In this document: positions 1 to 64,000 of the stretch, piece after piece
Numbering within the stretch: position 1 is the first letter of the stretch
How the letters are laid out: each line of letters starts with the position of its first letter
Assembly (NCBI GenBank): GCA_039586755.1
Contig: JBDHJU010000011.1
Span: 14,412 to 78,411 of the forward strand
Direction: 5' to 3'
Length of the DNA: 64,000 bases
Origin: Gemmatimonadota bacterium
GTDB taxonomy: Bacteria > Gemmatimonadota > Gemmatimonadetes > Palauibacterales > KS3-K002
The notes under the pieces: generated by a model
The model's input: the letters and a program-made list of their open reading frames with translations, nothing else
Databases searched by the model: none
What the model was told of the DNA's origin: nothing
Position numbers and translations under genes: made by a program

Positions 1-733
1 TTTCGATTTCTTTCCCGTCGGAGGGCCGCTGGATCTTGCCCCCCGTGGGGCCGCCCACCGAGGCGAGGCGCTCCATCATCAGGTTGGTGATCACGTTCGG
101 GTATGTACCGAACCCCAGATTCTCGATCTGCTCGGCTGGGAACGGGTCCCAACCGGTCGCCCAGATCACAGCCTGAACGTCCAGCTCGATCGTCTCGGTC
201 CCCATATCGAGCTCGATTGCATCGTACGGACATGCCGGCACGCATTTCCCGCATTCGGCTCCCGGGCACACGCTACCGTCGATCGCGTACTGCAGCGGAT
301 GAGCCATCTCGAACGGCAGGTAGATTGCCTTGGTCACCGCCATCCCGAGGTTGAACTCATCAGCTCGCTCCACGGGGCAGGCCTCGACGCACTTGGCGCA
401 GGCCGTGCACTTGGCGTTCACAAAGCGTGGTGTTCGCTGGATGGTGGCTTTGTAGTTTCCGGGGCCGCCGGTGATCTTTTCGACCTGTGACAGCGTCAGG
501 CATCGAATGCGCGGGCTGGTCCTGAGGCGACGAAAGTGAATCTCCAGGCCGCAGGTCGGTGGGCAGAGCTTGGGAAAGTACAGGCTCATCTGAGCCACAC
601 GGCCGCCCAAGTGAGGGTTCTTCTCCACCAACACCACCTCGCAGCCTGCTTCGGATGCCTCGATCGCGGCGGCGATACCGCTTATGCCGCCGCCGATCAC
701 CAGGACCGTTCCCCGCTTCCCGTTTCCGCTCAT
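1..733 (-). CDS. qmoA: QmoA / HdrA-like FAD oxidoreductase, N-terminal part only (gene runs off the left window edge)
   Basis: Absent from the ORF track because it is open to the window edge. My reverse-strand translation from ATG at 733 reads MSGNGKRGTVLVIGGGISGIAAAIEASEAGCEVVLVEKNPHLGGRVAQMSLYFPKLCPPTCGLEIHF...CTACAKCVEACP...CGKCVPACPYDAIEL, with no stop down to base 1. It has a GGGISG dinucleotide-binding fold, an LCPPxCGLE motif and two ferredoxin-type Cys motifs, as in HdrA/QmoA. It lies downstream of aprBA as in aprBA-qmoABC loci. ATGA start/stop overlap with the upstream gene. Confidence 0.7.
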   Translation of the reverse strand, partial: MSGNGKRGTVLVIGGGISGIAAAIEASEAGCEVVLVEKNPHLGGRVAQMSLYFPKLCPPTCGLEIHFRRLRTSPRIRCLTLSQVEKITGGPGNYKATIQRTPRFVNAKCTACAKCVEACPVERADEFNLGMAVTKAIYLPFEMAHPLQYAIDGSVCPGAECGKCVPACPYDAIELDMGTETIELDVQAVIWATGWDPFPAEQIENLGFGTYPNVITNLMMERLASVGGPTGGKIQRPSDGKEIE

Positions 734-2080: not shown

Positions 2081-3082
2081 CTAACTCGTGATGTACTTGA
2101 CGGGCTTCTTCATCATCGTCCAGTCGCCCGTGCCCCTGTCGTACTTGCAGTTGCAGAAGGCAAGCCAGTTCTTGTCGTCCATGCTCGGTTTGTCAGCGCG
2201 GAAGTAGTAGCCCGGCCAGCGGGTCTCCTCCCGGAACAAGATCGAGCGCATGTGGGCATCGGCCTGGTACATGCGGTGGACGTTCTCCCAGCAGCGCATC
2301 AGCTCGTGCAGGTTGGAGGCCGCCAGCTTCTCGGCATCTTCCTTCAGGAAGCTCAGCAGCTCCATGCCCTTTTCGAGCAGCTTGTCGCTGGTCTTGAACT
2401 GGCTGGACACACCACCCGCGTACTCGTCCATGATCTTCTGCAAGCGGTACATGAACTGCTGCGGGCGGATGTAGTTGGGGTTGATATCCGGGTCAGTGGT
2501 CATGCCACTGTACTCCTCGAACGTTGCCATGGGCCTGAGGATCTCTGCCGTCAGCGCGTCGACCTGGCCCTGATCCAGGTTGGGGGCCTGGTTGTTGTCG
2601 ACGATGTAGGAGATCGCGGCCTTGGCTGCGATACGACCCTCGGCATGTGAGCCGGAGGAGAACTTGTGGCTCGAGGCTCCTGAGGCGTCGCCGGCGGCGA
2701 ACATCCCGTTGACCGTGGTCATGTGCGGGTAACCCCAGAAGTAGTCGTCCTTCGTGTCGGCGGTCTGCAGATCCTCCGGACCGGAGACCCAGGCGCCGGA
2801 GGCGCCGGAGTGCGACCCGATGAAGTAGGGATCACAGGCCATGATCTCGGAAGCCTTCTTCTCGGGCTCGACGTTCGTGGCGGCCCAGAGGATCGCCTGC
2901 GAGATCGTCATGTCGAGGAAGTCCTCCCAAGCTTCGGCCTCGCGGGTGCCTCGTCGGCGATCTTCTTGATCGCGTCGGAGGTCTGCATGTAGATCGGGCT
3001 CTTGCCGTCCATCACGTCCAACATCATCAGCCAGTTGCGGATATTGGCAGGACGCGGCTTCACCTTGCCGTAGGGCTCCCAC
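2081..3082 (-). CDS. aprA: Adenylylsulfate (APS) reductase alpha subunit, C-terminal fragment (the real AprA sequence begins near AEAWEDFLDM)
   Basis: From EAEAWEDFLDMTISQAILWAATN...FAAGDASGASSHKFSSGSHAEGRIAAKAA...RWPGYYFRADKP the translation is typical AprA. The N-terminal 40 or so residues of this ORF are out-of-frame read-through. Confidence 0.9.
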   Translation of the reverse strand: MGALRQGEAASCQYPQLADDVGRDGRQEPDLHADLRRDQEDRRRGTREAEAWEDFLDMTISQAILWAATNVEPEKKASEIMACDPYFIGSHSGASGAWVSGPEDLQTADTKDDYFWGYPHMTTVNGMFAAGDASGASSHKFSSGSHAEGRIAAKAAISYIVDNNQAPNLDQGQVDALTAEILRPMATFEEYSGMTTDPDINPNYIRPQQFMYRLQKIMDEYAGGVSSQFKTSDKLLEKGMELLSFLKEDAEKLAASNLHELMRCWENVHRMYQADAHMRSILFREETRWPGYYFRADKPSMDDKNWLAFCNCKYDRGTGDWTMMKKPVKYITS

Positions 3083-8984: not shown

Positions 8985-9183
8985 TCAACCTGATGCGAGA
9001 TATGCTCGGCGGCGCGCGGTGTCAAGCTGAGCGGAGTGTGGGCTGTCTCATCGCTGGAGAAAGGTCGAGCAATATGATATCTTGCGGTGGCCGCTTTTCT
9101 CGTGCGAGGCCTCGCGACGTATTGCGCCTCGCGAGTCCGAAGGCGCTCAGCATCCACGCGAGCCCACATGTGGGCCAGGAGTC

Positions 9184-26277: not shown

Positions 26278-27201
26278 ATGCAGGAGACCATTCGGAGAAC
26301 CGTGCGGCTCGCCGCCCTCGGCGTCGCCCTGGCGCTGGCGGGCGCCGGCTGCGCTGGCGACCGGCTCAAGGCGCTGGGCGAACGTATCGAGGGACGTATC
26401 GCAGATAGCGGTGCCGAGGTCGTCGGCGTCTACTTCAAGGATCTGCTGAACGACGACTCGCTGCTGATCGCGGCGGACGTTCGAGTTCATGCGGCGAGCA
26501 TGATAAAGGTTGCGGTGATGATCCAGCTGTTCCGCGATCACGCGGCGGGGCTATCGAGCCTGGACGATAGCCTGACCATCACCAGGACCTTCGAATCGAT
26601 CGTCGACGGCTCGCCCTACGAGCTGGGCGCCCCGGACGACAGTGACACGACGCTCTATCGCCGGGTCGGCGAGCGTGAGAGCGTGCGGCGGCTGACGGAG
26701 CTGATGGTCACCGTCTCCAGCAACCTGGCGACCAACATGCTGATCGAGCACGTGGGCGCCGATCGAGTGACGGCGACGATGCGTTGGCTGGGGGCGGACT
26801 CGATCGAGGTTCTGCGTGGGGTGGAGGACGGCAAGGCATACCGCGCGGGCCTTAGCAACACTACTACGGCCCGAGATCTTGGAGTAATCTTCAGCGCTAT
26901 CGCCGAAGGTCGGGCGGCGGCCGGCGCAGCGGGCCGGGAGATGATCGAGATCCTCCTGCGTCAGGAGTTCAACACAAAGATCCCCGCCGGCCTCCCAGCG
27001 GGCGCGCGGGCGGCGCACAAGACGGGTTGGATACCCGACTACGTCAGCCACGATGGCGGCATCGTCTATCCCGACGGCGGGGATGTGTACGTGCTGGTGG
27101 TGCTGACCAAGGGCGGGGAAGGTCACGACGATTACGCCGAAGAGTTAATCGCCGACATCTCGCGCATGGTCTACGACGCGGTTCGAGACGGCCGGGGTTG
27201 A
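26278..27201 (+). CDS. Class A beta-lactamase-like serine hydrolase, secreted
   Basis: Signal or lipoprotein-like N-terminus (LALAGAGCAG). SxxK in HAASMIKVAVM, SxN in VSSNLATN, and KTG in AHKTGWI. Confidence 0.7.
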   Translation: MQETIRRTVRLAALGVALALAGAGCAGDRLKALGERIEGRIADSGAEVVGVYFKDLLNDDSLLIAADVRVHAASMIKVAVMIQLFRDHAAGLSSLDDSLTITRTFESIVDGSPYELGAPDDSDTTLYRRVGERESVRRLTELMVTVSSNLATNMLIEHVGADRVTATMRWLGADSIEVLRGVEDGKAYRAGLSNTTTARDLGVIFSAIAEGRAAAGAAGREMIEILLRQEFNTKIPAGLPAGARAAHKTGWIPDYVSHDGGIVYPDGGDVYVLVVLTKGGEGHDDYAEELIADISRMVYDAVRDGRG

Positions 27202-27212
27202 GCGACGACCTG

Positions 27213-28040
27213 TCAGGCGAGGCCGACGAGCAATGCGGCCAAGACCAGGACGTTGCTCGCAACCAGCGACCAGCCCAAGCGCCGCAGGTTGCGTGGATGA
27301 ACGCCCAGCAGGCCGAAGACGAGTGCGGCCAACGCCGTTGGCACGATGGCCACGGCGGCGAGAACCGGGACGTCACTGCCAAGGGCGAGGGCGATGGCTA
27401 GGGCGATGGCAACGGCGCAGAGCAGGGGGGCCAGGTGAACGGCTCGGCTCGGGTCCGCCGTCTTCTTTGCCCGTGCGATGATGGCCCGCACCGTTATTGT
27501 GCCGAGTTGGAAGACGACCGCCCAGACGACGAAGGCGACTACGGTCTCGCGAACGCCGGCGCCTCCGGCGAGCGCCACCGGGATCATGGTGCTCGAAAGG
27601 GTGACCGAAACGAGCAACTCGCCGATAAGTGTTTTTTCCTGACGCTTGAGGGTCAGGGGAGCGAGCAGCGTGCCCAGTGCTAGAGGGACGACGGCTGAGT
27701 AGCGCGCGGTCGGTGTCGCCAACCACAGCCCTGCGGCCCCGGCAATCGCAGCGACGGCCAACACCATGGCGCTGAGCCTGCGTGCCCGATCACCCTGCTC
27801 GCGCTTCGCACGACCCCCGCGTCCGCCACTCAAGACCATGACCGGCTCGTGGACCAAGAAGACGGCGATGATGCCGACGACTAGCAGTAGAGGAGCGAAG
27901 CCCGGGTCGCCGAGCGCCAGCGCCGTCACCAGCGGGAAGCCCAGCTGGGCATAGGCGCCGTGTTCCCGCGGCAGAAGCGACGGCCCGTGGCCGGCACGCC
28001 CTTCCGTCACCGGTTCAGCCCCCGCCTCTCGTAGTAACAC
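27213..28040 (-). CDS. YwiC-like polytopic membrane protein
   Basis: [23 protein letters not shown] is followed by about 8 hydrophobic helices; the family is recalled from the PxEHGAW N-terminal pattern. The start is uncertain because the listed start overlaps msrA by 34 nt. Confidence 0.45.
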
Positions 28041-36765: not shown

Positions 36766-37773
36766 ATGGAGCCCGCAGGGATCGCAGTGTTGTATCGGGT
36801 CGCACCGGGGAGGCGGCAGCTGGGCGCACGGAACGGTCTGCTGTTGTCACTTTGCGTCCTGGCTGTCCTGGGTCGTCCGCTCGACGTCTTCGGCCAGTAC
36901 GAGAACTTCATTCTGCAGGTCGACACGCTCGAGATGCTATTGCGTGACCGTGAATTTTGGATCGCGCAATTCGCCGACAACCGTATCGTTGGAGACCGGA
37001 CACAGCGCGCGGTCCTGGTGTTTGAAGATTTTCCGCCCATAAACGTCAAGTGGGCGGCGGCGCCCAGGGGCGCCGACTCGTTCAACAACCGCCCGCGCTT
37101 CGAGATGGCGGTCTACGAGCTGCAGAAGCTGTTCCTGGACGTAGAGGACTACGTCGTGCCGCCGACGGTGGTCCGTGCGATGCCGCTGGACGAGTACCCG
37201 CGGAAGAACGCCGTGCAGACGACGTTTCGCGGCATAGACGTCGTCTTGGTTCTCTTGCAGTACTGGCTGAGACAGGTCACCGACGAAGACGTCTACGACA
37301 GGGACCGCATAAGGGAAGATTCGCTGTACGCCCGGCACCTGGCCGACATGAACATCCTGACGTATCTGGTCAGGCACGCGGACGCCAACCCGGGGAACAT
37401 GCTGATCTCGACGGCCGGCAATGCCAGGGTCTTCGCGGTGGATAACGGCGTCTCGTTCGGCGACATCAGCGATCGGCCCGACGCCTGGCGGAAGATGCGC
37501 ACCGAGCGTCTGCCGCAGGGCACGGTGGAGAGGCTGCGAGGCATTAGCGAGGAAGATCTGCTCCAGGCGCTGGGCGTTTTGGCTCAGTTCGAGGTGAGAG
37601 GTGATCAACTGGTCCAGGTAGAGCCGACCGAGAACCTGGACCCGGGGAACGGTGTGCGTCGCAAGGACGATGTGGTTCAGTTGGGGCTGACGACCCGTGA
37701 GATCGGGAGAGTCTTTGGACGCCTGCAGGATCTGCTGGAGGATATAGACGAGGGGAAGTACGAAATCTTTTGA
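36766..37773 (+). CDS. Secreted atypical kinase-like protein (PI3/4-kinase-like catalytic signature), paralog 2
   Basis: 335 aa, colinear with paralog 1. The VRHADANPGNMLI and VFAVDNGVSFG motifs are identical, and the N-terminus LLLSLCVLAVLG is hydrophobic. Confidence 0.5.
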   Translation: MEPAGIAVLYRVAPGRRQLGARNGLLLSLCVLAVLGRPLDVFGQYENFILQVDTLEMLLRDREFWIAQFADNRIVGDRTQRAVLVFEDFPPINVKWAAAPRGADSFNNRPRFEMAVYELQKLFLDVEDYVVPPTVVRAMPLDEYPRKNAVQTTFRGIDVVLVLLQYWLRQVTDEDVYDRDRIREDSLYARHLADMNILTYLVRHADANPGNMLISTAGNARVFAVDNGVSFGDISDRPDAWRKMRTERLPQGTVERLRGISEEDLLQALGVLAQFEVRGDQLVQVEPTENLDPGNGVRRKDDVVQLGLTTREIGRVFGRLQDLLEDIDEGKYEIF

Positions 37774-37784
37774 GTGGGAGACGT

Positions 37785-39095
37785 ATGAGGCGAAGGGGCT
37801 TGACGGCAATCGGCATCGCCGCGTTGGCCGTCCCGTTGCTGGCGGCCGCTGGGTCGGCGGTCATTCTCGATTGCGGGCCGGCGCGGTCCGCTCCCCAGGA
37901 GGAAGCCGGGCGGTCCAAGATCCGTGTCGACGGCGAGTACGGCCTCTGGGTGCGGGAGATCGGTGACTCGTTGCAGATGCGCTGGTTTACACGGGAACAC
38001 GGTGTGGGGTACCTGGAAGTGGTCGTCGACGGCGGAGCGGTCTACGGGGTCGAGACCGAGCCCAGCACGGCCCACGCCGCGTCGTTTCCTAAGCCGGCCG
38101 CACCCGAGCTGACGCTGCGCTACGGTGGTCGCGGGGATCCGCAGGACGCGCACGAGACGGTCATCTACTTCGACCTGCCGCAACGCCCGATCGAGACAGA
38201 GTTCGAGGGCGTCGACACGCTCTTCGTCGTCGGTGATGTCCACGGTCAGTACGACACGCTCACCGCGCTGTTTCGCAACGCCGGCCTCATCGACGGCGAC
38301 GATCGCTGGACCGGCGGCCACAAATGGATCGTGCTGCTCGGCGACCTGGTCGATCGCGGGCCCGATGTCCACAAGGTCTTGTGGTTTCTGTACGAGCTGG
38401 AGCGCGACGCGACGCGACAGGGCGGCCGCGTCCAGGTCCTGTTGGGCAATCACGAGATCATGGCGATGAGCGACGACCCCCGGTACGTGTCGGCGAAAGA
38501 GAGGCTGATCGCCCAGAATCACGGCGTCGCATACTGGCAGCTGTTCGACCCGCGAAGCTCGATTCTCGGGAAGTGGCTTGCATCGAAACCGGCGCTGATC
38601 AGAATCGACAGGGTGGTACTAGCGCACGGTGGTGTCGGTCCCGAGTACATGGCCTACTCGATCCCCGAGTTCGACGACTCGCTGGGGCTGTTCATGAGCG
38701 AGGAGTGGTTCTACCGCATGGCCGACAGCACAGCTGCTTACACCCCACTGGACTCGGTGACGCTCTTCCGTCGCATCGACTTCTTCTTCGACGAAAACAG
38801 CGTCTTCTGGTATCGGGGCTACATGCATACCGATACCCTCTATACCGATAGCCTCGCGTCAGTACTCCAGCAGGTTCTCGAGCGGCACGACAGCGACCTC
38901 CACGTGGTCGGCCACACGGCGGTCGATTCGATCCAGACAATGTACGATGGATCTTTGGTCGCTGTGGACCTGAAGGAAGCGGCAACGGAGATGCTCCTCC
39001 TGGTACGCAGTCCCGAGAGTTACGAGCGGTATCGCTATACTTTGTCGGGGCCGCCGCAGCCGCTCGAGATCCCCGTCGCCGCCGGCGGCGGGTAG
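37785..39095 (+). CDS. PPP-family metallophosphatase, Shewanella-like phosphatase (SLP) type, with an N-terminal signal-like segment and an extra N-terminal domain
   Basis: LFVVGDVHGQYDTL, LLGDLVDRGPD, LLGNHEIMAMSDDPRYV and LAHGG are the PPP motifs GDxHG / GDxxDRG / GNHE. N-terminus MRRRGLTAIGIAALAVPLLAAAG. The ORF is open from 37770, overlapping the upstream stop; GGGAG precedes the ATG at 37785. Confidence 0.75.
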   Translation: MRRRGLTAIGIAALAVPLLAAAGSAVILDCGPARSAPQEEAGRSKIRVDGEYGLWVREIGDSLQMRWFTREHGVGYLEVVVDGGAVYGVETEPSTAHAASFPKPAAPELTLRYGGRGDPQDAHETVIYFDLPQRPIETEFEGVDTLFVVGDVHGQYDTLTALFRNAGLIDGDDRWTGGHKWIVLLGDLVDRGPDVHKVLWFLYELERDATRQGGRVQVLLGNHEIMAMSDDPRYVSAKERLIAQNHGVAYWQLFDPRSSILGKWLASKPALIRIDRVVLAHGGVGPEYMAYSIPEFDDSLGLFMSEEWFYRMADSTAAYTPLDSVTLFRRIDFFFDENSVFWYRGYMHTDTLYTDSLASVLQQVLERHDSDLHVVGHTAVDSIQTMYDGSLVAVDLKEAATEMLLLVRSPESYERYRYTLSGPPQPLEIPVAAGGG

Positions 39096-39245
39096 CTCTT
39101 CCACCAGACCCACCGGACTCACGTTGGTCGAGGTATAGGCGCAGCCGAACGAACCACGAAACCGCCCATGGCGTCGGGTCGTAGAGGGCCCTAAGGTTCA
39201 CACCCGGGAGCCCCACCCATCTCAGTGCCTTTCGGTTGAGGTGAT

Positions 39246-41417
39246 ATGTACCCTTCTGCGGTGGGGCGCGTTCTTCTACTCCTGTCACTGGCGAGCGGGG
39301 CGATCACCCCGGCACAGACCCAGGAGCCGCTTCGTCCCCTGCGCACCGATGATCCGCCGGTGATCGATGGCGACCTGGCAGACCCGGTGTGGCAGGAGGC
39401 CCCCCAGCTTTCCGAGTTCATGACGTGGGCGCCGGACTACGGCAAAGAGATGCTCGGCGCGACAACGGTATACATGGCTCACGATGCGTCGAACCTCTAC
39501 TTCGCCTTTCGCTCCTTCGACGCCGAGCCCGAGAAGATCAAGACGTCGATCACCAGCCGGGACAACATATGGCGGGAAGATTGGGTCGCCATCAACCTCG
39601 ACTCGTTCAACGATCAGCAATCGCTCTACGCGCTTTACATCAATCCGCACGGCATCCAGGCGGACAGCCGCTATGCCGCAGGCCACGAGGACCGCAGCTT
39701 CGATCTGGTCTGGTACAGTGCCGGCCGAGTGGACGAGGCCGGGTACACCGTCGAGGTGCAGATACCGCTCAAGAGCATCCGCTACGCCGAGGGAGACTCG
39801 GTCAGCATGGGGGTCATCTTCGAGCGCCACATCAGCCGCCGCTCGGAGTATGGCAGTTGCCCGCCACTCGATCCGAATCAGCAGGAGTGGCTCACTCAGA
39901 TGGCGCCGATGGTCTTCCACGACCTCGAGCGCTCGAAGCTGTTGGAAGTGATTCCGGCCGCGACTTACGCGTACAGCGAGGCGCTGGAGGAGGGCGGGCT
40001 GGCCACTGACGAGCGGCAGGGCGAGCTCAGCCTGACCGCCAAATACGGCGTCACCTCGGACCTGATCTTGGACGGTACCTACAATCCCGACTTCAGCCAG
40101 GTCGAAGCCGATGCCGGGCAGGTAGATGTCAACCTGCGCTACCAACTCTACTTTCCCGAGAAGCGGCCGTTCTTTCTCGAGGCGCGCGAGAACTTCACCG
40201 TCGCCGCCACCGCATCATCGGAGAGGGATCCCGTTCAGTCGATCGTCTACACCAGGACGATCGTCGATCCCGTCGCCGGGTTCAGGCTGTCGGGCAAGCT
40301 CGGTGCCAAGAACACCGTGGCCTCGATCTACGCGGCTGACCAGCTGCCGGAACCCGAGCCTGCGTCGGGCGCCGGTTACGCCCACTTCCCCATACTGCGG
40401 TACAAGCGGACGCTAAACGAGGACAGCTACGTCGGGGGTATCATCGCCGGCCGTGAACTGCGGCATCAATACAACCGTTTGGCAGGAGTCGACGGTCAGC
40501 TGCGTGTCAGCGATTCCAGCATGCTCGGGTTTCACGGCCTCTTCTCTTGGGCCCGGCAGAGTCTCGCGACCCTGGCGGTAGAGGGACGGTCCCTCAGTGC
40601 ACAGTACTCGCACGGGACCCGCGACCTCGACTACGGCCTGGCCGTGAACGACGTCTCAGAGGATTTCCGTGCCGAGATGGGTTACGTGATCCGTACGGGG
40701 ATACTCCAGTTCAGTGGCCTGCTCAAACCGAAGATCTACCCGAACTCGAACGTCCTGCGACGGATCGACATCGAGCTTTTCTCGGCTCAGACCGAGGACA
40801 GGTTCAGCGGGCTATGGGAGACGTTCAATCACGTCTCGATGCTGAACCGCCTTTGGGGAAGCCTGACCCTCAAGCTGAAATACTCGTATTCGACTGAGAT
40901 CTTCCTCGGTCAGCGATTCCGGACCGGTGGGTTCCACGTATTCGGCGGCGGCCAGTTTACCCGGCAGCTCTATTTGGGAGTCCTCTACAGGAACGTCGGG
41001 TCGATCTTCTACTCGGAAGACCCGTATCAGGGTCGCAGCAACGTGTTGCGGGCCGACCTCGTCTATCAGCCGTCGGACAAACTGCGTTCCGAGCTGAGCT
41101 TCACTTACAGTGACTTCTATCGGGAGTCGGACGGACAGAAGATCTATAACTACCCGATCGTTTGGGGAAAACTGACTTACCAGTTCAACAAGTATCTCTT
41201 CCTGCGCGGGATCCTCGAGTACAACGACTTCCGGGATGAGATGCTCACCGACCTCTTGGTTTCCTTTACCTACATTCCGGGCACCGTGATCCACATCGGC
41301 TATGGCGCTCTCTTGGACAAGATCGAATGGAGGAACGGCGAATACGTGGAGGGTGACAGGTTCCGCCAGACCCGGAGGCGATTCTTCTTCAAGGCGTCGT
41401 ATCTCTGGCGGATCTAG
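39246..41417 (+). CDS. CBM9-like plus DUF5916-type large secreted/outer-membrane protein
   Basis: Signal peptide VLLLLSLASGAITPAQTQ. DDPPVIDGDLADPVWQEAPQLSEF...NLYFAFRSFD is a CBM9-like N-terminal domain. A long beta-rich region follows, including GTYNPDFSQVEADAGQVDVN, which the second copy shares as NPDFGQVEADPAVVN. Confidence 0.6.
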   Translation: MYPSAVGRVLLLLSLASGAITPAQTQEPLRPLRTDDPPVIDGDLADPVWQEAPQLSEFMTWAPDYGKEMLGATTVYMAHDASNLYFAFRSFDAEPEKIKTSITSRDNIWREDWVAINLDSFNDQQSLYALYINPHGIQADSRYAAGHEDRSFDLVWYSAGRVDEAGYTVEVQIPLKSIRYAEGDSVSMGVIFERHISRRSEYGSCPPLDPNQQEWLTQMAPMVFHDLERSKLLEVIPAATYAYSEALEEGGLATDERQGELSLTAKYGVTSDLILDGTYNPDFSQVEADAGQVDVNLRYQLYFPEKRPFFLEARENFTVAATASSERDPVQSIVYTRTIVDPVAGFRLSGKLGAKNTVASIYAADQLPEPEPASGAGYAHFPILRYKRTLNEDSYVGGIIAGRELRHQYNRLAGVDGQLRVSDSSMLGFHGLFSWARQSLATLAVEGRSLSAQYSHGTRDLDYGLAVNDVSEDFRAEMGYVIRTGILQFSGLLKPKIYPNSNVLRRIDIELFSAQTEDRFSGLWETFNHVSMLNRLWGSLTLKLKYSYSTEIFLGQRFRTGGFHVFGGGQFTRQLYLGVLYRNVGSIFYSEDPYQGRSNVLRADLVYQPSDKLRSELSFTYSDFYRESDGQKIYNYPIVWGKLTYQFNKYLFLRGILEYNDFRDEMLTDLLVSFTYIPGTVIHIGYGALLDKIEWRNGEYVEGDRFRQTRRRFFFKASYLWRI

Positions 41418-46512: not shown

Positions 46513-47726
46513 CCCGTCAGCACTTCCTCTCCATCCAGCCGCGCCACGATTACCGAGCCGCAAGAATCACTGAGCACGTTAACCGTGGTGCGGAACATGT
46601 CGAGGACTCGGTCAACCGCCAGAATTATCCCCACACCTTCGAGCGGCAATCCCACGGCGGCAAGTATGATCGACATCATCACCAGACCCGACATGGGCAC
46701 ACTGGCTGCGCCGATCGACGCGAGCAGCGCCGTGACGACGATGATCAGCTGCTGGTCGAAGGAGAGCGCAAAGCCGTAGACCTGTGCGATGAAGATCACG
46801 GCGACGCATTCGTAGAGCGCCGTACCATCCATGTTGACTGTCGCGCCGATCGGGAGCACGAACGAGGCGATCTTTTCTGACACTTTCGAGTTGTCGGTCA
46901 CCGCCTCCATCGTGAGCGGCAGCGTCACTATGGTGGAACAGGTAGAGAAGGCGGTCACCAAGGGCGGTGGCATCCCTTTGTAGTGTCGCCAGGGATTCTT
47001 GCGCGTCACGAGATAAACGAGCAATGGCAGCGTCACGCTGGCATGGATGAAGAGCCCGATTAGAACGACGACGAAGTAGAAGCCCAACGACCGAAACGCC
47101 TCGAAGCCCGTCGTCGCCACGATCGTGGCGTTTATTCCGAAGACGCCCAGCGGCGCCGACCAGATCACCAGTCGCGTCATCTTCATCATCGCCTGGAATG
47201 CCGCCTGAAACAAATCCCCCAACTGCGTTCGCTGCGGTTCCTTCAGCTGCGTGATGAAGTAGCCGAACAGGATGCAGAAGAATATCACCGGAAGAACATC
47301 GCCTTCGGCCAGCGACTGGAACGGGTTCTCCGGGATGATCCGTAGTATGAGGTCCTTGACACTCTGTTGTGCGGCCGGGATCTCGGTGACGGCTTCAGTG
47401 AGCTGGATGGCCGACCCGGCGCCGGGCCTGAAGATGTTCACCAGGATCTGGCCGGTCAGTATCGCCAGCAGGCTGCTAGTGACGTAGTATGCGAAGGTCT
47501 GCGCGCCCAGCAGGCCCAGGTTCTTCCGCTCGCCGACGCTGACGACCGCCGCGGTCAGAGATGTGATGATCAGCGGCATGATCGCCATGCGGAGGAGCCT
47601 GAGAAACACGTCGGACAAAGGCTCGGCTACCGGTACGATCGCTTCGCCGAACAGCTTACCGGCGAGCATACCGGCGAAGAGGCCGACGAATATCCAGAAT
47701 GTCAGCGATCTATAGGGGATCCTCAT
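46509..47726 (-). CDS. Dicarboxylate/amino acid:cation symporter (DAACS; DctA/GltP family)
   Basis: RMAIMPLIITSL..., FFCILFGYF, PIGATVNMDGTALYECVAVIFIAQ and ASIGAASVPMSGLVMM are hallmark DAACS segments. Confidence 0.88.
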   Translation of the reverse strand: MRIPYRSLTFWIFVGLFAGMLAGKLFGEAIVPVAEPLSDVFLRLLRMAIMPLIITSLTAAVVSVGERKNLGLLGAQTFAYYVTSSLLAILTGQILVNIFRPGAGSAIQLTEAVTEIPAAQQSVKDLILRIIPENPFQSLAEGDVLPVIFFCILFGYFITQLKEPQRTQLGDLFQAAFQAMMKMTRLVIWSAPLGVFGINATIVATTGFEAFRSLGFYFVVVLIGLFIHASVTLPLLVYLVTRKNPWRHYKGMPPPLVTAFSTCSTIVTLPLTMEAVTDNSKVSEKIASFVLPIGATVNMDGTALYECVAVIFIAQVYGFALSFDQQLIIVVTALLASIGAASVPMSGLVMMSIILAAVGLPLEGVGIILAVDRVLDMFRTTVNVLSDSCGSVIVARLDGEEVLTG

Positions 47727-47797: not shown

Positions 47798-49495
47798 ATG
47801 CGCGACGCAGTCACAGCATTCGCCTCGGTCCTGATCGCCTGGGCCGCCATTGGGGCGGCTCCGGGCTTTGCGCAGCAGGCGGAACTAGATAGTGGCGCAA
47901 TCACGCCGCGCGTCGACAGCGTCTTCGCCGAGTACGACCGAACCGATTCGCCGGGCTGCGCGCTGGGCGTGATCCGGGACGGCGAGCTGATCTACGCGCG
48001 CGGCTACGGGATGGCGAACCTCGATCTCGGCGTCGCGATAACGCCGGCCAGTGTCTTCCGCATTGGGTCGACGTCGAAGCAGTTCACGGCTGCGGCCGTC
48101 GTGCTGGCGGCGCAGAACGGAGAACTATCGCTCGAAGACGATATCCGGAAGCATCTGCCCGAGATGCCCGACTACGGTAGGACGATCACGATCCGTGACC
48201 TGCTGCATCACACGAGCGGCATTCGCGACTACATTGGACTTATGTATTTGTCGGGTCTCCGCGAAGACGACTGGTTCACCGACGGTGAAGTCGTGGCGAT
48301 GGTGGCGCGGCAGCAGGCGACCAACTTCGAACCGGGCTCGGAGCATCTGTACAGCAACTCCGGCTACTTCCTGATATCGCAGATAGTCAAGCGAGCCACC
48401 GGGATGTCGCTTCGCGAGTACGCGCAGGAGCACATCTTCCGGCCGCTGGGGATGACCCACACACACTTCCACGACGACCACAAAGAGATCGTCGCGGAGC
48501 GCGCCAGCGGCTACGCGCCGGCACGTGGCGGCGGCTTCCGTATCAGCATGACGACCCTCGACATGGTGGGCGACGGCGGCGTTTTCACGACGGTCGAGGA
48601 CTTGCTACTCTGGGACGGTAACTTCTACGAGCCGCGCGTGGGTGGCGACGAGTTGGTGCAGACGATGCTCCAACGTGGCGTCCTCACGGGCGGCGACACG
48701 CTGAGCTACGCGCTGGGGCTGGGGCACGCGATGTATCGAGGATTGCCCACTGTGCGACACGGGGGAGCGTGGGTGGGGTTCCGGGCGCAGATGATTCGCT
48801 TCCCGGAGCAGCGCTTCTCGGTTATCTGCCTGTGCAATCTGGCCGCGGCGAACCCGACGGAGCTGGCTGAGCAGGTGGCCGACGTCTACTTGGCTGACCT
48901 GCTGGAGCCCGAGCAGGCGGGCCCAGCCACGGCGGCCACATCGCCCGACGATCCGCCCATCGAGCTGGCTCGGGATGAGCTGGCCCGCTGGGTAGGCCTG
49001 TACAGGCGACTCGATGGCGACAGCTATCTGCAGTTGGAGATGCGTGAGGACAAGCTGACGTTGGCCGCAGATGCCGGCTACGAGCTCGTGCCACTGGCCG
49101 AGGATCGTTTCCGACTCGCCGGCATCCCGGTTCAGATCCACTTCGCCGTAACCGAAGACGGGTCCCGCATGACGGTGGTCCAGCGGGGCGGCAGGCGTGC
49201 CTACGATCTCGTGGAAGCGGCGAAGTACAGTGCGGCGGAGCTCGCTGCGTTTGCCGGTACGTTTCACAGCGAGGAGCTCGACTCGAGCTATCGGATCTAT
49301 ATAGCGGAAGGTGAGCTCAAGGTGCTGCGGGGCCGAGGCGACCCGGAAACGCTCCGACCCACGGTGGCGGATGAGTTCATGCTGGCAGGTGCTCGCGTGA
49401 CGTTCGAGCGCGACGTTCGCGGCCGGGCTGGAAGCTTCGTCCTCAACGCGGGTCGTGTCAGAGGCATCCGTTTCGTGCGGATTGACGGGGAGTGA
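47798..49495 (+). CDS. Serine hydrolase of the class C beta-lactamase / PBP4* family with a C-terminal extension domain
   Basis: Signal peptide, SxxK in FRIGSTSKQFTAAAV, YxN in LYSNSGYFL, and HGG in VRHGGAWVGF. Confidence 0.75.
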   Translation: MRDAVTAFASVLIAWAAIGAAPGFAQQAELDSGAITPRVDSVFAEYDRTDSPGCALGVIRDGELIYARGYGMANLDLGVAITPASVFRIGSTSKQFTAAAVVLAAQNGELSLEDDIRKHLPEMPDYGRTITIRDLLHHTSGIRDYIGLMYLSGLREDDWFTDGEVVAMVARQQATNFEPGSEHLYSNSGYFLISQIVKRATGMSLREYAQEHIFRPLGMTHTHFHDDHKEIVAERASGYAPARGGGFRISMTTLDMVGDGGVFTTVEDLLLWDGNFYEPRVGGDELVQTMLQRGVLTGGDTLSYALGLGHAMYRGLPTVRHGGAWVGFRAQMIRFPEQRFSVICLCNLAAANPTELAEQVADVYLADLLEPEQAGPATAATSPDDPPIELARDELARWVGLYRRLDGDSYLQLEMREDKLTLAADAGYELVPLAEDRFRLAGIPVQIHFAVTEDGSRMTVVQRGGRRAYDLVEAAKYSAAELAAFAGTFHSEELDSSYRIYIAEGELKVLRGRGDPETLRPTVADEFMLAGARVTFERDVRGRAGSFVLNAGRVRGIRFVRIDGE

Positions 49496-56608: not shown

Positions 56609-56644
56609 GGTGACCGCGTGCCAGTGCCAGATCGGAGGACGCAG

Positions 56645-58120
56645 ATGATTCGCAAGTCTCTCGTAGGTCTCATTCTCACTCTCCTTTCAGCTCAAACCGC
56701 GCAGGCGCAGCAGCCTGGGGAAATCAGCTATCACGATGAGTCGGTGATGCCCACCGGGCTCATCGGCGAAAGGATAAGCTCGGTTATCAGCACCTTGAAC
56801 GCCGGCGATCCGGCCGCTGTACGCAGTTTCATAGAGGAGGAGTGCAGCGAGCGGTTCGCGAACTTCGCGCCGATGGAGGAGCATGTCAGCGTATTCCTCG
56901 GCATACGGCGCCAGACGGGCGGTGTGGACTTTCACAGCATTCGCACCTACGTGCCGGAACGAGTCGGTGAGACGGTCGTCATCCTCAAGGACCGCAACTT
57001 CGGCGCCTGGCGCGCTTTCACCCTGAGGCTCGACGACGCCGGCCGCGTGGCCGGACTCGGCTTCAACAATGCCCGTACTCCCTCGAACGTCGATGAGCCA
57101 CCGCTCGGCGAGTCGCAGGTCGTCGAGATAATCGAGGAAACGGTCGAGCGAATCTGCGCAAATGATGTGTTCTCCGGCACGGTGCTGCTCGCCAAGGATG
57201 ATGAAATCCTCTTCTCGCACGCCTGCGGCGAGGCCAGCAAGCGTTTTCACGCACCGAACAACATCGACACGAGGTTCAACATCGGATCGATGAACAAGAT
57301 GTTCACGGCGACGGCGATAGCGCAGCTGGTCGAGCGCGGCGAACTGTCGTACGACGAAACCATCGATAAGTACGTCGACGAATCGTGGCTACCTCGGGAA
57401 ATCACGAGCAAGATCACGATTCACCATCTGCTGTCCCACACCTCGGGGCTCGGCAACTATTTCAACGAGACCTACGCGACCGGATCTCGGCAGTTGTACC
57501 GGAGCGTGGACGATTTCAAGCCGCTAGTGCAGGGTGACGAACCGGCGTTCGAGCCTGGCGAACGGTACCGCTACAGCAACACGGGGATGTTGCTACTGGG
57601 TGTCGTGATCGAGAGCGCCACCGGCGGCAGCTACTTCGATTACATCCGCCAGCACATCTACGAACCCGCCGGCATGGAGGGCTCCGACAGTTACGAGATG
57701 GACTACCCCGTCGAGAACTTGGCGATCGGGTACGATCCGAATCCTGGGGGCGAGTACGGCTGGAAGAACAACCTCTACATGCACGTCATCAAAGGTGGCC
57801 CGGCGGGCGGCGGGTTCTCGACCGTCGGGGACTTGCACCGCTTCGCCCGGGCGCTGGTGACGGGCAAGCTCGTTTCGCAGGGCTCGTTGGACGTCATGTG
57901 GACCGCCAAGTCGGATGCGGGATACGGCTACGGGTTCGGCACTCGGGTGGGGCCGAAGGGTAGGGTCGTCGGACACGGTGGTGGCTTTGCCGGAATTAAC
58001 GGCGATCTCGAGATCTTCGTCGACGCCGGATATGTCGTCGCCGTCCTCTCCAACTACAGCAACGGGGCCAGCCCGCTATCCGGGAGGATCCAAGATCTCA
58101 TCGGACGGGTGCAGCCGTGA
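56645..58120 (+). CDS. Serine hydrolase of the class C beta-lactamase family with an N-terminal extra domain
   Basis: GGAGGA precedes the ATG at 56645. Signal peptide LILTLLSAQTAQAQ, SxxK in FNIGSMNKMFTATAI, YxN in YSNTGMLL, and HGG in VGHGGGFAGI. Confidence 0.75.
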   Translation: MIRKSLVGLILTLLSAQTAQAQQPGEISYHDESVMPTGLIGERISSVISTLNAGDPAAVRSFIEEECSERFANFAPMEEHVSVFLGIRRQTGGVDFHSIRTYVPERVGETVVILKDRNFGAWRAFTLRLDDAGRVAGLGFNNARTPSNVDEPPLGESQVVEIIEETVERICANDVFSGTVLLAKDDEILFSHACGEASKRFHAPNNIDTRFNIGSMNKMFTATAIAQLVERGELSYDETIDKYVDESWLPREITSKITIHHLLSHTSGLGNYFNETYATGSRQLYRSVDDFKPLVQGDEPAFEPGERYRYSNTGMLLLGVVIESATGGSYFDYIRQHIYEPAGMEGSDSYEMDYPVENLAIGYDPNPGGEYGWKNNLYMHVIKGGPAGGGFSTVGDLHRFARALVTGKLVSQGSLDVMWTAKSDAGYGYGFGTRVGPKGRVVGHGGGFAGINGDLEIFVDAGYVVAVLSNYSNGASPLSGRIQDLIGRVQP

Positions 58121-58147: not shown

Positions 58148-59542
58148 ATGTCAAGAGCTGAGACCGGTGGGGGCGGCACAGCTGCCGAGCCGGCTCTTCC
58201 AGGCCGGTGGGGGCCCGTCTCCGCTGAGGAGCGGATCGTCACTCTGGACGTGCTGCGCGGGGTCGCGATCTGCGGCATGCTGTTGGCCAACATCGTCATC
58301 TTTGCATTCCCAGCCAGTTCCAGAAACATGATGGGCGGAGCGGCCACCGCTGCCGAGGTTGCGGTGGCTACCGTCCTCGCGCTACTCGTCGAGGGCAAGT
58401 TCTACACGCTCTTCTCCATCCTCTTTGGGATGGGTCTGGCGCTTCAAAGCTGGCGGGCCGACGAGCGTGGTAGGCCGTTCATTGGCGTCTACGTCCGCCG
58501 CATGATCGTGCTGCTTGTCATCGGCGTCGCCCACGGCCTGCTCTTTTCCGCCGTCGACATCCTGGCCTTTTACGCTCTGATTGCTCTCATTGCTCTCCCT
58601 TTTCGGAGACTCGAGGCGCGGTCACTTCTCGTGACCGCCGTCGCGCTGTATCTCGGCAGTATTGTCGCGCTCGGTGTGTACGCTCAACGCGCGCTCGGCG
58701 GTGCGCTACCGGGCGAGCCGAACTGGCAGCAACTGCTTGACGAACGAGCTGGGGCGTCTGGGGATGCCCTTCGTGCGGGCGGCGCGAGCGCGTCGGGGAT
58801 CGCGACGGGGGTGACGTTCATACCTCTGGTCACGAAGGTCTTCAAGGTATCCGAGCGCGAGCTTTTTGAGTTCATGGCGGACGAGGAGCGCATCTTCAGC
58901 GAGGGCACGTGGGCGGAGCAGGTCCGGCATCGGGCCGTGAGCTACCTCGCCGTGGTGATGCCCCTCAGGCTCGTGTTTCTGAGCTGGCGTGTGCTCGCCC
59001 TGTTCATCCTCGGTATGTACTTCGTCAAGCGCTCGCTCTTCCTCGAGCGCGATCGAAATCTCGGGCACTACAGAACGATCGTCTTCTCGGGTCTGGTACT
59101 TGGACTGCTGCTCGAGCTGACGGGGGGAGCGGCGCAGCAGCTGAGCGGCGAGTACGTGGCGGCGATCTGGGTCTTATTGATAGGCTTCAACATGGGGATT
59201 CCGGCGCTGAGCCTAAGCTATGCCGGCGCGGTGGCGCTGGCCTGCGCGAGAAACGCCGGGTCGAGCGTCGTCCGCTCGCTCGCCGCGCTAGGTCGCACGG
59301 CGCTGACGAACTACGTGGGCCAGTCCGTCATCTGCGGCCTCATCTTCTACTCCTACGGATTGGGGCTATTCGGAGAATTGAGCGGCATCGAGGCGCTGCT
59401 GCTCGCCGTGCCGATCTTGGCCGCTCAGCTGGTTGTGAGCGTGGTCTGGCTGAAGTTCTTCCGCTTCGGCCCGCTCGAGTGGGCCTGGCGATCCCTGAGC
59501 TATTGGCAGATTCAGCCGCTGCGTCGGCAGGAAGCGCTATGA
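58148..59542 (+). CDS. DUF418 / YeiB-like polytopic membrane protein (acyltransferase-3-like)
   Basis: RIVTLDVLRGVAICGMLLANIVIF...FYTLFSILFGMGLAL...RTALTNYVGQSVICGLIFYSYGLGLFG...GPLEWAWRSLSY. Confidence 0.7.
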   Translation: MSRAETGGGGTAAEPALPGRWGPVSAEERIVTLDVLRGVAICGMLLANIVIFAFPASSRNMMGGAATAAEVAVATVLALLVEGKFYTLFSILFGMGLALQSWRADERGRPFIGVYVRRMIVLLVIGVAHGLLFSAVDILAFYALIALIALPFRRLEARSLLVTAVALYLGSIVALGVYAQRALGGALPGEPNWQQLLDERAGASGDALRAGGASASGIATGVTFIPLVTKVFKVSERELFEFMADEERIFSEGTWAEQVRHRAVSYLAVVMPLRLVFLSWRVLALFILGMYFVKRSLFLERDRNLGHYRTIVFSGLVLGLLLELTGGAAQQLSGEYVAAIWVLLIGFNMGIPALSLSYAGAVALACARNAGSSVVRSLAALGRTALTNYVGQSVICGLIFYSYGLGLFGELSGIEALLLAVPILAAQLVVSVVWLKFFRFGPLEWAWRSLSYWQIQPLRRQEAL

Positions 59543-59680: not shown

Positions 59681-60340
59681 TTGCACTGGAGGGCGCCCGT
59701 GAAGGCGATCTGGGTCTGGGCGCAAGGAAGGTCCAGGTTCGAGGTCCTGGTGGCATCGGCCGTGGTGCTGGTAGGTGTCGCTGCGGGTCTGGTCGCGCTG
59801 GAGGCCGTGACGGTTGCCCGTCTGGGGGACTCGACCCTGAGGGCCCCGACAAGGATATACGCACGTCCCCTCGTACTTCACCTTGGCATGCAACCGAGCC
59901 GCTCGTTGGTCGAGGACGAGCTCGAGCGGTTGGCCTACGTGGGTGCCTCGGGCCGCGATGTCGGGATCGGCGAGTACCACCTCCAGTCACGAACTTGGAC
60001 GATCGGTCGTCGGCCTTTCCGCCACCACGAGAGGATCAGCCCGGGCGGCACCGCCATCATCCGCTTCGACTACAGAGGGCGCATCGCGAGAATCGATGAC
60101 GCCAGCGGTGAACGGCTGACCCATGTCACGCTGGAGCCGCAGCTGATCGGCACTTTCCAGGGCACATCGCACAAGGATCGCGTTCCGGTACAGATGGCCG
60201 ATGTGCCGAAGCATGCGACGCATCGTTGCCGCGTCCATTGCCAACCTCCGGGCCGGACAGGTCAGGCAGGGCGCCAGCACTCTCACCCAGCAGCTTGCCA
60301 AGAATCTGTTCCTGAATCCGCGACGCACGATAATCCGTAA
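59681..60340 (+). pseudogene. mrcB: Class A penicillin-binding protein (PBP1B-like), N-terminal fragment: TM anchor and UB2H-like region
   Basis: Anchor VLVASAVVLVGVAAGLVAL, then APTRIYARPLVLHLGMQPSRSLVEDELERLAY...LEPQLIGTF...DRVPVQMADVPKH. The frame then degenerates into Arg/Pro-rich text and a stop. Confidence 0.7.
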
Positions 60341-62048
60341 AGTGCGCGAGGCCGCCATAGCGGTAGTTCTCGAGCGACGCTACAGCAAGGAACAGATCCT
60401 CGAGGCCTACCTGAACGAGGTCTACCTCGGGCAAGACGGTGGGCTCGCGATCCACGGTGTGGGTCGGGCGGCACAGTACTACTTCGGCAAGGATGTGAGC
60501 GCGCTCGACCTCGGCGAAGCGGCGACCCTCGCCGGCTTGATACGCGGCCCGGGCCTCTACAACCCGTTCCGGCGACTGGAAGCAGCGAGGATGCGTCGCG
60601 ACCTGGTGTTGCGACGGATGGAAGAAGTGGGGGTCATCGACCAGGAGGCCCATCAGGCAGCGGTGAACTCGCCACTTGTCATACGCGTGGAGCCCCAGCC
60701 GACGCGCAGTGCCCGCTACTTCATCGATTTCGTGAGAGAGCAGTTGAGGTCCGATGGCCAGGATGACCTCGCCGGCGAAGGCCTCGCGGTCTTCACTACG
60801 CTGGACACACGGCTTCAGCGCGCCGCTGAGCGGGCCTTGGGCCAGGGCCTACTCCAGCTCGAGTCACAGTACCCGCACCTGGCGCGCGATGATTCGCCGA
60901 TCCAGGCGGCGCTGGTCGCTCTCGACCCGCAGACCGGCGATGTCCTCGCCATGGTGGGAGGTCGCGATTATGGTGCCTCGCAGTTCAATCGCGCGGTGCA
61001 TGCGCGCCGGCAGCCGGGCAGCGCCTTCAAGCCCGTCGTAGCGCTTGCCGCGTTGTCGCGCCGCGGTGATGACAGCGACGCAGAGGATCAGCCGACCCTC
61101 GCGACGATCCTGAACGACGAGCGGTTCGTCGTGCAGACGCGACAAGGACCTTGGGAGCCGGTCAACTACGATCGGCGTTTTCGCGGGCCGATAAGGTTGC
61201 GCGAGGCGCTCGAGAAATCGCTGAATGTGCCATTCGCCAGGCTCGGCATGATGGTGGGGCCGGAACGAATCGTCGAGACCGCTCGCGACCTGGGAATCGA
61301 GGGCCGACTCATCGCCGTGCCCAGCATAGCCCTCGGCTCGAACGAGGTGACCCCGCTGGAACTGACCCGCGCCTACGGGGTGCTGGCGGCGGGTGGATAT
61401 CGCGCGGAGACGCGGGCGGTGTTCGGCGTGCTCGATCGTGAGGGCGAACTGACAGCCCGCAACGACAGGACCGGTGAGCAGGTCTACGAGCTGGCCGAGA
61501 CATATCTCGTCACCTCGGCGCTGCGCGGGGCGGTCGAGCGCGGCACCGGTCGCGGGCTGCGATCGCTGGGCTACCGCGGTGATGTGGCGGCAAAATCCGG
61601 CACGACGAACGACTTCCGCGATGGGTGGTTCATCGGCTACACGCCCTCGCTGACCGTCGGCGTTTGGGTCGGATTCGATGATGGGCAGAGCATCGACTTG
61701 CCCGGCGCCAGAGTAGCGCTGCCGATCTTCACTCGCTTTCTGGTCGAGGCCGTCGGTTCCTACGGCGATCGAGGCCCCTACGGTGGCGACCGCTTCAGCA
61801 TACCGCCGGGGATCGAGGTGGTGGAGGTCGATCCGCGCACCGGCCTGCGCGCCGGCCTGGGCTGCCGCGGCGAACGCGAGCTCTTCCTGCGCGGCACAGC
61901 TCCACGCCGCAGCTGCTCGCCCTACGCGGTCGTGCGCTGGCTGCGCGATGGCGAGGAGTGGGTGAGCGAGCAAGCTGATCGCCTACGTCTCGAGCTACAG
62001 CGACTGTTGGAGCAGGACGCCCGTCGCAGGCGCGGCGGAGGTCGCTAG
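60201..62048 (+). pseudogene. mrcB: Class A penicillin-binding protein (PBP1B-like), C-terminal fragment: remainder of the GT51 domain plus the transpeptidase domain
   Basis: RRIVAASIANLRAGQVRQGASTLTQQLAKNLFLNPRRT...YSKEQILEAYLNEVYLGQDG are GT51 motifs 2-3. SxxK in RQPGSAFKP, SxN in EKSLNVP, and KTG in AKSGTTND. The ED..F..H.G catalytic motif that should precede it is absent. Confidence 0.75.
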
Positions 62049-62196: not shown

Positions 62197-62637
62197 ATGT
62201 CGCTGACGACGAAGGAAAAGCAATTGGTTTCTGTGGGCGCGTCGCTGGCCTCCGGGTGCAAGCTTTGCGCCGACTACCACTTCGAGAAGGTGCGCAAGGT
62301 CGGCGCTACGGATGAGGAGATCGAGCAAGTCATGAACGTCGCCATTGCAGTGCGCGACGAAGCCAGGAAGATAATGGAGTGGCATGGGCTAAAGCTCCTG
62401 GGGCGCAAGTTGCTCGGGCAGGAAAGTGAGCCGCCCGTCAGCGGTGGTGACACGACACGTATGACAGAGCTTGTGTCTATCGCCTCCGCTTTCGCGGTCA
62501 ATTGCACCTCGAGCTTGGAGAAGCACATCGAGGCGGCCCGCAGCCTGGATGTTTCTGATGACGACGTACAGGCGGCCGTTGACATAGGCAGGTTCATCAA
62601 GGGAAAGGCAGACTCTTACTGCTGTAAGGTCATATAG
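62197..62637 (+). CDS. Carboxymuconolactone decarboxylase (AhpD-like) family protein with two half-domains
   Basis: LVSVGASLASGCKLCADYHFEKVRKVGATDEEIEQVMNVAIAV and LVSIASAFAVNCTSSLEKHIEAARSLDVSDDDVQAAVDIG. The first half keeps the CxxC..H redox motif. Confidence 0.65.
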   Translation: MSLTTKEKQLVSVGASLASGCKLCADYHFEKVRKVGATDEEIEQVMNVAIAVRDEARKIMEWHGLKLLGRKLLGQESEPPVSGGDTTRMTELVSIASAFAVNCTSSLEKHIEAARSLDVSDDDVQAAVDIGRFIKGKADSYCCKVI

Positions 62638-62663: not shown

Positions 62664-63185
62664 ATGGTTTCCCCCGCGGACTGCATTCTCGTCAAGCCCA
62701 GTTTTGGACGCTTTGTCTACTACAAGCTCCTCACTGCGGTCCCAGTCGCCGCTGCCTTAATCGCTATCATTCGGTACTCCGATGCACCCTACTGGCCTTT
62801 CGTATACATCGGACTCTGCCTGCTGCACGCCGGCATCATGTACACGATCAAGTGTCCCCATTGCGCTTACTATAAGATGGGCGGAAAGACGCACCACTGT
62901 TTCATGATCTGGGGCACCCCCAAGATATGGAAACCTAGATCGACGCCGGAGAGCCGGATCGTTGGAATTTACGCTCCAATCGGCATGCTGGTCCTTACGG
63001 CCTTTCCCGTATACTGGCTGCTATCGCAATGGGAGTTGCTGCTCGTCTACGTTCTCTCCATCGCGGCCCTCGTCATGTCGTTCGGACTGAACGATTGTCC
63101 ACGGTGCCTCAACTTCGAGTGTGGGCACAATACGGTACCCGAGGAAGTGAAGAGGGCGTACTTGGAATCGATCGTAGTGGACTGA
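62664..63185 (+). CDS. Hypothetical polytopic membrane protein with two Cys/His clusters
   Basis: 173 aa with about four helices. Clusters KCPHCAYYKMGGKTHHC and NDCPRCLNFECGHN. It starts 27 nt downstream of the AhpD-like gene. I recognise no family. Confidence 0.4.
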   Translation: MVSPADCILVKPSFGRFVYYKLLTAVPVAAALIAIIRYSDAPYWPFVYIGLCLLHAGIMYTIKCPHCAYYKMGGKTHHCFMIWGTPKIWKPRSTPESRIVGIYAPIGMLVLTAFPVYWLLSQWELLLVYVLSIAALVMSFGLNDCPRCLNFECGHNTVPEEVKRAYLESIVVD

Positions 63186-64000
63186 TCTCGACCCTGGGGG
63201 CGTGGCGGGGATGAGTGTCTCGCAGGACACCTGACCCTCCGCTGCGCGTGTCCGCCTGGACACGAAACCACCGTGCGGCGCCGAGCCGGGTCTGGCCCCC
63301 GGCCTGCCTCTCTGATTCCGTGAAGGCCCCGCGATGGGCGGGGTGCGGAACCAGGAGGAGGCTACGCGTGATGGCGCTCAAAGTCCGAACCGGGGTGGTG
63401 CAGACAGCGGTGGCCGTCGCCCTCTGGGTGCTGCTGACCCTCCTCCTGGCCTAGCATAAGGTCGGTCGAACCTGAAGCTCCACTGCAGCGCCTAACGGAG
63501 CCGTACCAACACGGCGCCCCTCTCCGAATTCCGCACTGCGAGGAAGCATCGCTTGACAAGCGCTTGACGGCTGAACCCTCAGGTCGCTATTCCCCTGGTT
63601 CGCATCACGAAACTAGAAGTCTGCCGCGGCGACCAGGCGTGCGCGCGAGCGGTTGCGAACAACGCACCGGGCAGGTTGCTGATGGGCATCCTTCTGGGTG
63701 CCACCGCCGGAGTCGTCGGCGAAGGGGTAGGCTCGGCCCTCACCTTGAAGGAGGCCGAGCTTGGTGAGGCGGCGGCCCAGGGGGCTCTCTACGGTGCGGC
63801 GCTCGGCGCTGACGCAGAAAGAGGAAGGGAGGGCGAAGGGCTGTGGCAAGAAGTGACGGTCGGACAACTGCGGCAGGAACTGGCGGCGGCCTCTCCTTCA
63901 AAGCGGTGATCTGACCCTGTTCGACACCTTCCGCCGCAAACCCTCGTAGGGCTATAGGGGACGGACCTGTCCCCAGCCGATAGCCCCAATCCAGCCCCTC

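Follow-up and report, generated by a model that had tools for sequence, protein, structure and literature searches.

A 62-nt gap in a PBP1B-type gene of a Gemmatimonadota metagenome contig, probably an error of assembly

In the present study, we analysed a PBP1B-type class A penicillin-binding protein gene from a Gemmatimonadota population, of which the deposited contig lacks one stretch of 62 nt. From the comparison of sequences, we consider it probable, at roughly 80%, that this gap is an assembly error in the short-read metagenome scaffold as deposited (a mis-closed join), and the population most likely carries an ordinary functional bifunctional peptidoglycan synthase of the PBP1B type. 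The artefact is favoured because eight assemblies of 99.9+% identity keep the 62 nt, and also because the deletion is private to one contig, similar deletions and gaps recur across these assemblies, and outside the gap the gene shows no damage. The initial annotation had left the choice between a pseudogene and a local mis-assembly. Mis-assembly is strengthened by the siblings that keep the segment, and pseudogene is weakened, as the lesion is unshared and no decay accompanies it. The further suggestion, loss of this bifunctional PBP from the organism, is unsupported, since eight sibling assemblies carry the 62 nt. All positions refer to the window, which is the whole 64,000-nt stretch of DNA that was analysed.

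The locus at 59681-62048 consists of two overlapping ORFs on the plus strand in differing frames, 59681-60340 and 60201-62048. Its span of 2368 nt is 3n+1, and the frameshift read from that span in the initial annotation is confirmed. The following features were assigned to the gene:

59699..62048, plus strand: PBP1B-type class A penicillin-binding protein gene, from GTG 59699 to the stop at 62048, with one 62-nt deletion
59699..60213, plus strand: 5' part of the PBP1B-type gene, with anchor, UB2H and the first GT51 residues (...DRVPVQMADVPKH), from ORF translation, Pfam and NCBIfam
60213..60214, plus strand: deletion junction, 62 nt absent (TTTGGTGGACGCCGTTCTCACCACGGAGGACCAGCGGTTCTTCGAGCACGACGGGCTCGATC), from DNA alignments to L001/L002 and L003-L010
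60214..60340, plus strand: out-of-frame tail of the upstream fragment (ATHRCRVHCQ...), with its stop codon at 60338-60340, from ORF translation
60214..62048, plus strand: 3' part in the shifted frame, with GT51 motifs 2-5 and the transpeptidase domain, fully intact, from Pfam and motif scan

The true start is probably GTG 59699, in frame with TTG 59681, because the orthologs begin with M/VKAIW. Counted from this GTG, the first stop is reached after 213 codons, and a single uninterrupted frame is thus lacking. The in-frame sense of the upstream ORF stops at ...DRVPVQMADVPKH, with out-of-frame reading thereafter, and the downstream ORF includes RRIVAASIANLRAGQVRQGASTLTQQ. In the upstream translation, the hydrophobic stretch FEVLVASAVVLVGVAAGLVALEAV forms the N-terminal membrane anchor, and Pfam UB2H is matched at residues 66-148 with 29.5 bits against a cut-off of 27. 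The same 5' fragment matches the NCBIfam model TIGR02071 (PBP_1b) at profile positions 8-157. In the downstream ORF, Pfam Transgly is matched from profile position 46 to 177 (of 178) and is followed by Transpeptidase (E = 6.5e-29). This frame holds GT51 motifs 2-5 (GASTLTQQ, RKVRE, KEQILEAYLN and RRDLVL), and the motif scan found SAFK, SLN and KSG for the transpeptidase motifs SxxK, SxN and K[ST]G. GT51 motif 1 (EDxxFxxHxG, with the catalytic Glu) is missing from the window copy: when 60100-60330 was translated, the motif was encoded in none of the three frames between the two ORFs. Hence, the first description of a PBP1B-like gene holds (UB2H, GT51 and transpeptidase are all present, and PBP_1b is the best NCBIfam match), and so does the absence of the glycosyltransferase Glu motif from all three frames, which is seen both in the translation and in the entry of Transgly at profile position 46. 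In the public record, the 3' part is called as a 611-aa protein with its start at ATG 60213.

In the DNA alignment with the closest ortholog loci, we found one gap of exactly 62 nt at 60213|60214 and no further indel in the gene. What is missing is a run of 21 codons (LVDAVLTTEDQRFFEHDGLDL), which amounts to GT51 motif 1 including the catalytic Glu, E233 in E. coli numbering, and the frame is shifted. A deletion of 3n+2 nt, of about 59 or 62 nt, had been proposed, and the alignment settles its length at 62 nt. The junction is blunt, with 1 nt of homology and no N. When the 62 nt were re-inserted, a clean 2412-nt ORF was obtained which encodes 803 aa with all five GT51 motifs as well as SxxK, SxN and KSG, and the restored window protein differs from that of one sibling contig (L007) by one residue. 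Against the sibling contigs, no window-private substitution was detected in the PBP1B gene, which thus shows no sign of decay. Secondary decay in the form of another indel or another stop was likewise absent from the gene. If the sequence were read as it stands, the allele of the window would be null, because it has no catalytic Glu and its transpeptidase half is cut off from the membrane anchor. In E. coli PBP1B, the GT51 glycosyltransferase uses E233 as its catalytic general base (PMC8119973).

For the ortholog search, the two gene halves were fused and used as the query, by which thousands of class A PBPs were returned. The best matches came from Gemmatimonadota metagenomes and MAGs, namely P0001 with 94% and P0002 with 87% protein identity, each of 803 aa. 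Eight full-length orthologs were then aligned, with the N-terminal 359 aa of the window protein as first sequence, to which they are 61-96% identical, and all of them have exactly 21 residues, LVDAVLT[VI]EDQRFFEHDGLDL, between PKH and RRIV, where the window has none. The estimate of about 20 residues missing between the fragments was therefore close, and the idea that orthologs may naturally do without the segment found no example among the eight. The motif EDQRFFEHDG is present in 8/8 sibling contigs and in 8/8 aligned orthologs. The genes of P0001 (JGI metagenome, contig L001) and P0002 (MAG CP070812.1, L002) stand in the same synteny as that of the window, DUF418 - PBP1B - CMD-family protein. 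Over these three genes, the DNA identity to the window is 96% for L001 and 87% for L002, the complete MAG, and the sole indel is the stretch of 62 nt which both genes carry, unlike the window. With the family models, the intact sibling protein scored 615.7 bits for TIGR02071 PBP_1b, its best family match, which is below the equivalog cut-off of 717.75, and it passed TIGR02074, the PBP1A-family subfamily model, with 546.1 against 508.75. The window downstream fragment reached 499.2, just under the same subfamily cut-off of 508.75. Judged from these scores, 'PBP1B-type class A PBP' is a fitting label for the intact gene, because PBP_1b is the best model at a score below its cut-off and the broader PBP1A-family model is passed. 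In the 64-kb window, tblastn with P0001 found the PBP1B-type gene and no second class A PBP.

Sibling contigs of the same population were found by the exact sequence of the neighbouring CMD-family protein (62197-62637). This gave ten contigs (L003-L012) from ten different JGI metagenomes, nine of the series 3300041076-87 and one of 3300041024. Over ~52-64 kb of the window (52.2-63.3 kb), L003-L010 are 99.8-100% identical to it, and the divergent-haplotype contig L011 is 98.9% identical. All eight contigs that span the site (L003-L010) contain the 62 nt, and seven of these encode the uninterrupted 803-aa protein. The lesion is accordingly shared by 0/8 sibling contigs, which are independent samplings of the lineage. 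The initial annotation had stated that gene loss would fall if some 60 extra nt restoring EDxxFxxHxG in frame came to light, and by proxy these are what the eight sibling assemblies supply. In addition, a 90%-identity protein cluster of 17 members contains the truncated 611-aa form (P0128) from a single 78,514-nt contig only, evidently the one from which the window was taken, and intact forms from several contigs. The sequence of P0128 equals window 60213-62048, and the deletion stands in both the JGI and the NCBI copies of the record.

With three further look-ups, the siblings cover window 844-37275 and 39800-64000 at ~4x depth, and window 1-843 and 37276-39799 lie outside this coverage. In 275 kb of aligned sibling sequence there were 133 mismatches, a mismatch rate of 0.048%, and ~60 polymorphic positions were counted across the 61 kb of sibling-covered window. 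Exact-pattern scans of public genome and metagenome contig collections gave zero matches for the deletion junction and zero for the intact junction. Since these collections hold none of the population, the result is uninformative either way. A literature search on the sample and assembly accessions found no publication. We also observed that the gene calls for the intact siblings differ between databases: the JGI call is 740 aa from an internal ATG (MQPSRSL...), for example L004 7630-9852, by which the membrane anchor would be dropped, and the NCBI calls (P0130, P0131 and P0134) are 803 aa, which equals the length of the GTG-start ORF in the siblings and agrees with the orthologs.

The 62-nt gap is one of a larger group of private deletions in these assemblies. 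Two more were found in the window itself:

2942..2943, minus strand: second window-private deletion, 34 nt in comparison with L024 and L025, which frameshifts an aprA-like gene
63269..63270, no strand: third window-private deletion, 68 nt, in an intergenic, strongly polymorphic segment, from the sibling alignment

By the 34-nt deletion, the aprA-like gene is split into ORFs 2081-3082 and 2908-3939 on the minus strand, and in L024 and L025 it is intact with 630 aa. This gene has the domains FAD_binding_2 and Succ_DH_flav_C and adjoins an APS-reductase_C ferredoxin gene. At the 68-nt deletion, the window base at 63268 is C, as in haplotype B, and that at 63273 is G, as in haplotype A. On these alleles the junction 63269|63270 is a chimeric join, because haplotype B lies on its left and haplotype A on its right. 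Among the siblings, L003 has private deletions of 39 nt (window 58852-58890) and 43 nt (window 62808-62850), the L006/L015 contig has 61 nt (window 61333-61393) and 36 nt (window 47283-47318), and L020 has 74 nt at 3908/3909 (window 27789-27862). The 61-nt deletion (L006 9198) again frameshifts the PBP1B gene, in this case within the transpeptidase domain, and the 36-nt deletion (L015 2813-2815) splits an SDF transporter gene. The genes broken by private deletions in the sister assemblies are those for the PBP1B transpeptidase domain, the SDF transporter, a YwiC-family protein, DUF418 and the 173-aa protein. This makes eight events in all, three in the window (34, 62 and 68 nt) and five in the siblings (36-74 nt). 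Every one of them is a deletion, and no private insertion was seen in the window or the siblings over the aligned range. Between 52 and 64 kb, the window has two private deletions and a single private substitution.

Two runs of N in the sister contigs are imprecise as well. In L008, 46 N at 8600-8645 take the place of 59 nt, at the position where L003 has its 43-nt deletion, and L007 has a spurious 26 N with a 5-nt duplication (TCGAA) at 9094-9119, where three other contigs are contiguous. Thus, lesions like that of the PBP1B gene recur elsewhere in this contig as well as in its sister assemblies, together with a chimeric join and two inexact N-runs, as would be seen with artefacts of assembly joining. 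The deletions are concentrated in few assemblies, namely the window, sample 3300041082 and sample 3300041085. The deleted segments have a GC content of 0.53-0.74, around the 0.63 of the window, and do not deviate consistently in either direction. Junction homology is 0-1 nt at all eight, and on this ground replication slippage at direct repeats was rejected as their origin.

Regarding the mechanism, sequence common to co-occurring genomes and strain variation are classic causes of breaks in de Bruijn graph assembly. We suggest that two contig ends may have been joined directly, with no Ns, after some tens of bases that belong between them had been left unassembled. The missing segment overlaps the part of the gene which is most conserved between co-occurring relatives, and k-mers common to these genomes could have tangled the assembly graph there. 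Among the exact matches between the gene and its counterpart in the 87%-identical species of L002, the longest (44 nt) is overlapped by the 62-nt deletion of the window and the second longest (41 nt) by the 61-nt deletion of L006. Furthermore, for 4/8 deletions a site that varies between strains lies in the deleted segment or no more than 10 nt from one of its ends. These associations with conserved runs and polymorphisms are suggestive, being post hoc and drawn from eight events. Next to the PBP junction itself, the flanking polymorphism is one SNP, 2 nt away, in L004, which provides too few sites for a call of haplotype switch.

The lesion could also be real, that is, a very recent 62-nt deletion which dominates the population of one sample. 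We regard this as unlikely. It does stand in the deposited record, in the JGI and NCBI copies of P0128 alike, and blunt junctions with 0-1 nt of homology would fit end-joining repair. However, none of the eight near-identical sibling assemblies shares it, and the gene has gathered no window-private substitution. If it were real, translation would yield a membrane-anchored stub with UB2H from the upstream part and a product without membrane anchor and catalytic Glu from the downstream part, so that neither glycosyltransferase activity nor an exported transpeptidase activity would be predicted, and SEDS/bPBP pairs or other class A PBPs would have to serve the cell instead. A variant that goes further takes recurrent small deletions, for example from end-joining repair, as the cause, with PBP1B lost twice in parallel. 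According to it, all of the 34-74-nt deletions would be real, the population would make blunt microdeletions at about the rate of point substitutions, and different clones would dominate different samples. PBP1B would then have been knocked out twice, in GT51 motif 1 in the window and in the transpeptidase domain in L006, which would point to selection for loss of the synthase in a neighbourhood rich in beta-lactamase-like genes. The second, independent frameshifting deletion in L006 can indeed be read as parallel selection rather than as the mark of a gene that assembles poorly, and clustering of the events by assembly also fits real variants specific to clones. Nevertheless, we hold this variant to be quite improbable. 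Against a real deletion in either form, eight deletions of 34-74 nt and no insertions, beside ~60 polymorphic positions in 61 kb, make an implausible spectrum of natural mutation, and the excess of two private deletions over one substitution at 52-64 kb adds to this. In addition, one of the window deletions lies exactly at a haplotype switch, as in a chimeric join, N-gaps coincide with deletions of other assemblies, and several of the events frameshift genes which are otherwise conserved (aprA-like, SDF transporter and PBP1B).

A naturally split or recoded gene was considered too, in which two polypeptides would be functional, or a programmed frameshift would join them, in a PBP1B lineage without motif 1. 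In its favour, both fragments are long open frames. Against it, the 21 residues are present in 8/8 orthologs (including the 96%-identical P0001), in every sibling contig and in E. coli PBP1B, the motif is found in no frame of 60100-60330, neither a membrane anchor nor a signal sequence is present in the downstream fragment itself, and the residue removed corresponds to E233, which acts as general base in GT51 catalysis (PMC8119973). The split or recoded gene was rejected on the frame scan, the orthologs and the siblings, and we give it next to no credence.

Several observations on the neighbourhood may be recorded here. Genes related to beta-lactams are abundant nearby, comprising a class A beta-lactamase-like gene (PF13354), two of the beta-lactamase family PF00144, DUF418 and PBP1B:

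26278-27201, 47798-49495, 56618-58120, 58148-59542 and 59699-62048: beta-lactam-related neighbourhood genes

In the relatives, a BlaI/BlaR1-like pair (Penicillinase_R and Peptidase_M56 with HEAT repeats) is located ~1.5-2 kb downstream, at L001 7033-9262 and L002 14131-16315. Downstream of the 173-aa gene, window 63270-64000 occurs in two haplotypes which are ~86% identical with many 29-96-nt indels, between flanks of 99.9% identity. L003, L005, L007 and L008 form one haplotype group, and L004, L009 and L011 the other. This hypervariable stretch holds small ORFs. Within the 173-aa gene, L011 at ~2330-2530 (window 62966-63162; sample 3300041087) has 28 substitutions in ~200 nt and is otherwise identical, and the cluster looks like a segment of a divergent strain that was recombined or co-assembled. 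At the other end, window ~1-22000 contains a sulfur-related cluster (AprA/AprB-like, TauE exporter, Na/sulfate symporter, DsrE-like and two sulfatases), and also a ferrochelatase/GlutR fusion and a histidine kinase with several response regulators. The annotations in this region were taken from sibling gene calls.

Concerning the meaning of these results, a scan of this contig or its MAG would report that PBP1B and an aprA-like gene are lost, and the population almost certainly has both. Silent deletions of 30-75 nt are also present in sister assemblies. Therefore, calls of gene loss or pseudogenes from these MAGs need confirmation at the level of reads. The main value of the present case is such a caution against pseudogene calls from these assemblies. 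If the deletion were real, it would add one more dispensable class A PBP, which is known biology and moderately interesting only.

The intact protein resembles E. coli PBP1B (MrcB; PDB 3FWL, 3VMA and 5HL9) in its working as in its build, with the same order of anchor, UB2H, GT51 and transpeptidase. Residues 24-704 of the intact sibling protein align to positions 24-696 of the 3FWL chain (E = 7e-110), and the segment absent from the window aligns over LVDTLLATEDRHFYEHDGISL of the E. coli protein, which contains E233 (numbered from the offset of the chain, with the active-site Ser510 as anchor). Unlike E. coli PBP1B, the intact sibling protein has an Arg-rich C-terminal extension of ~100 aa. The lesion, in turn, resembles the known join and gap-closure errors of short-read metagenome scaffolds, which are likewise private, tens of nucleotides long and accompanied by variable N-runs in sister scaffolds. 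Here too an N-run stands at the deletion site of another assembly, one haplotype switch is chimeric, and the sites fall in sequence that is conserved between genomes or polymorphic between strains. Unlike typical scaffold gaps, the junctions in the window have no Ns, and the attribution to a mis-closed join draws on the comparative evidence.
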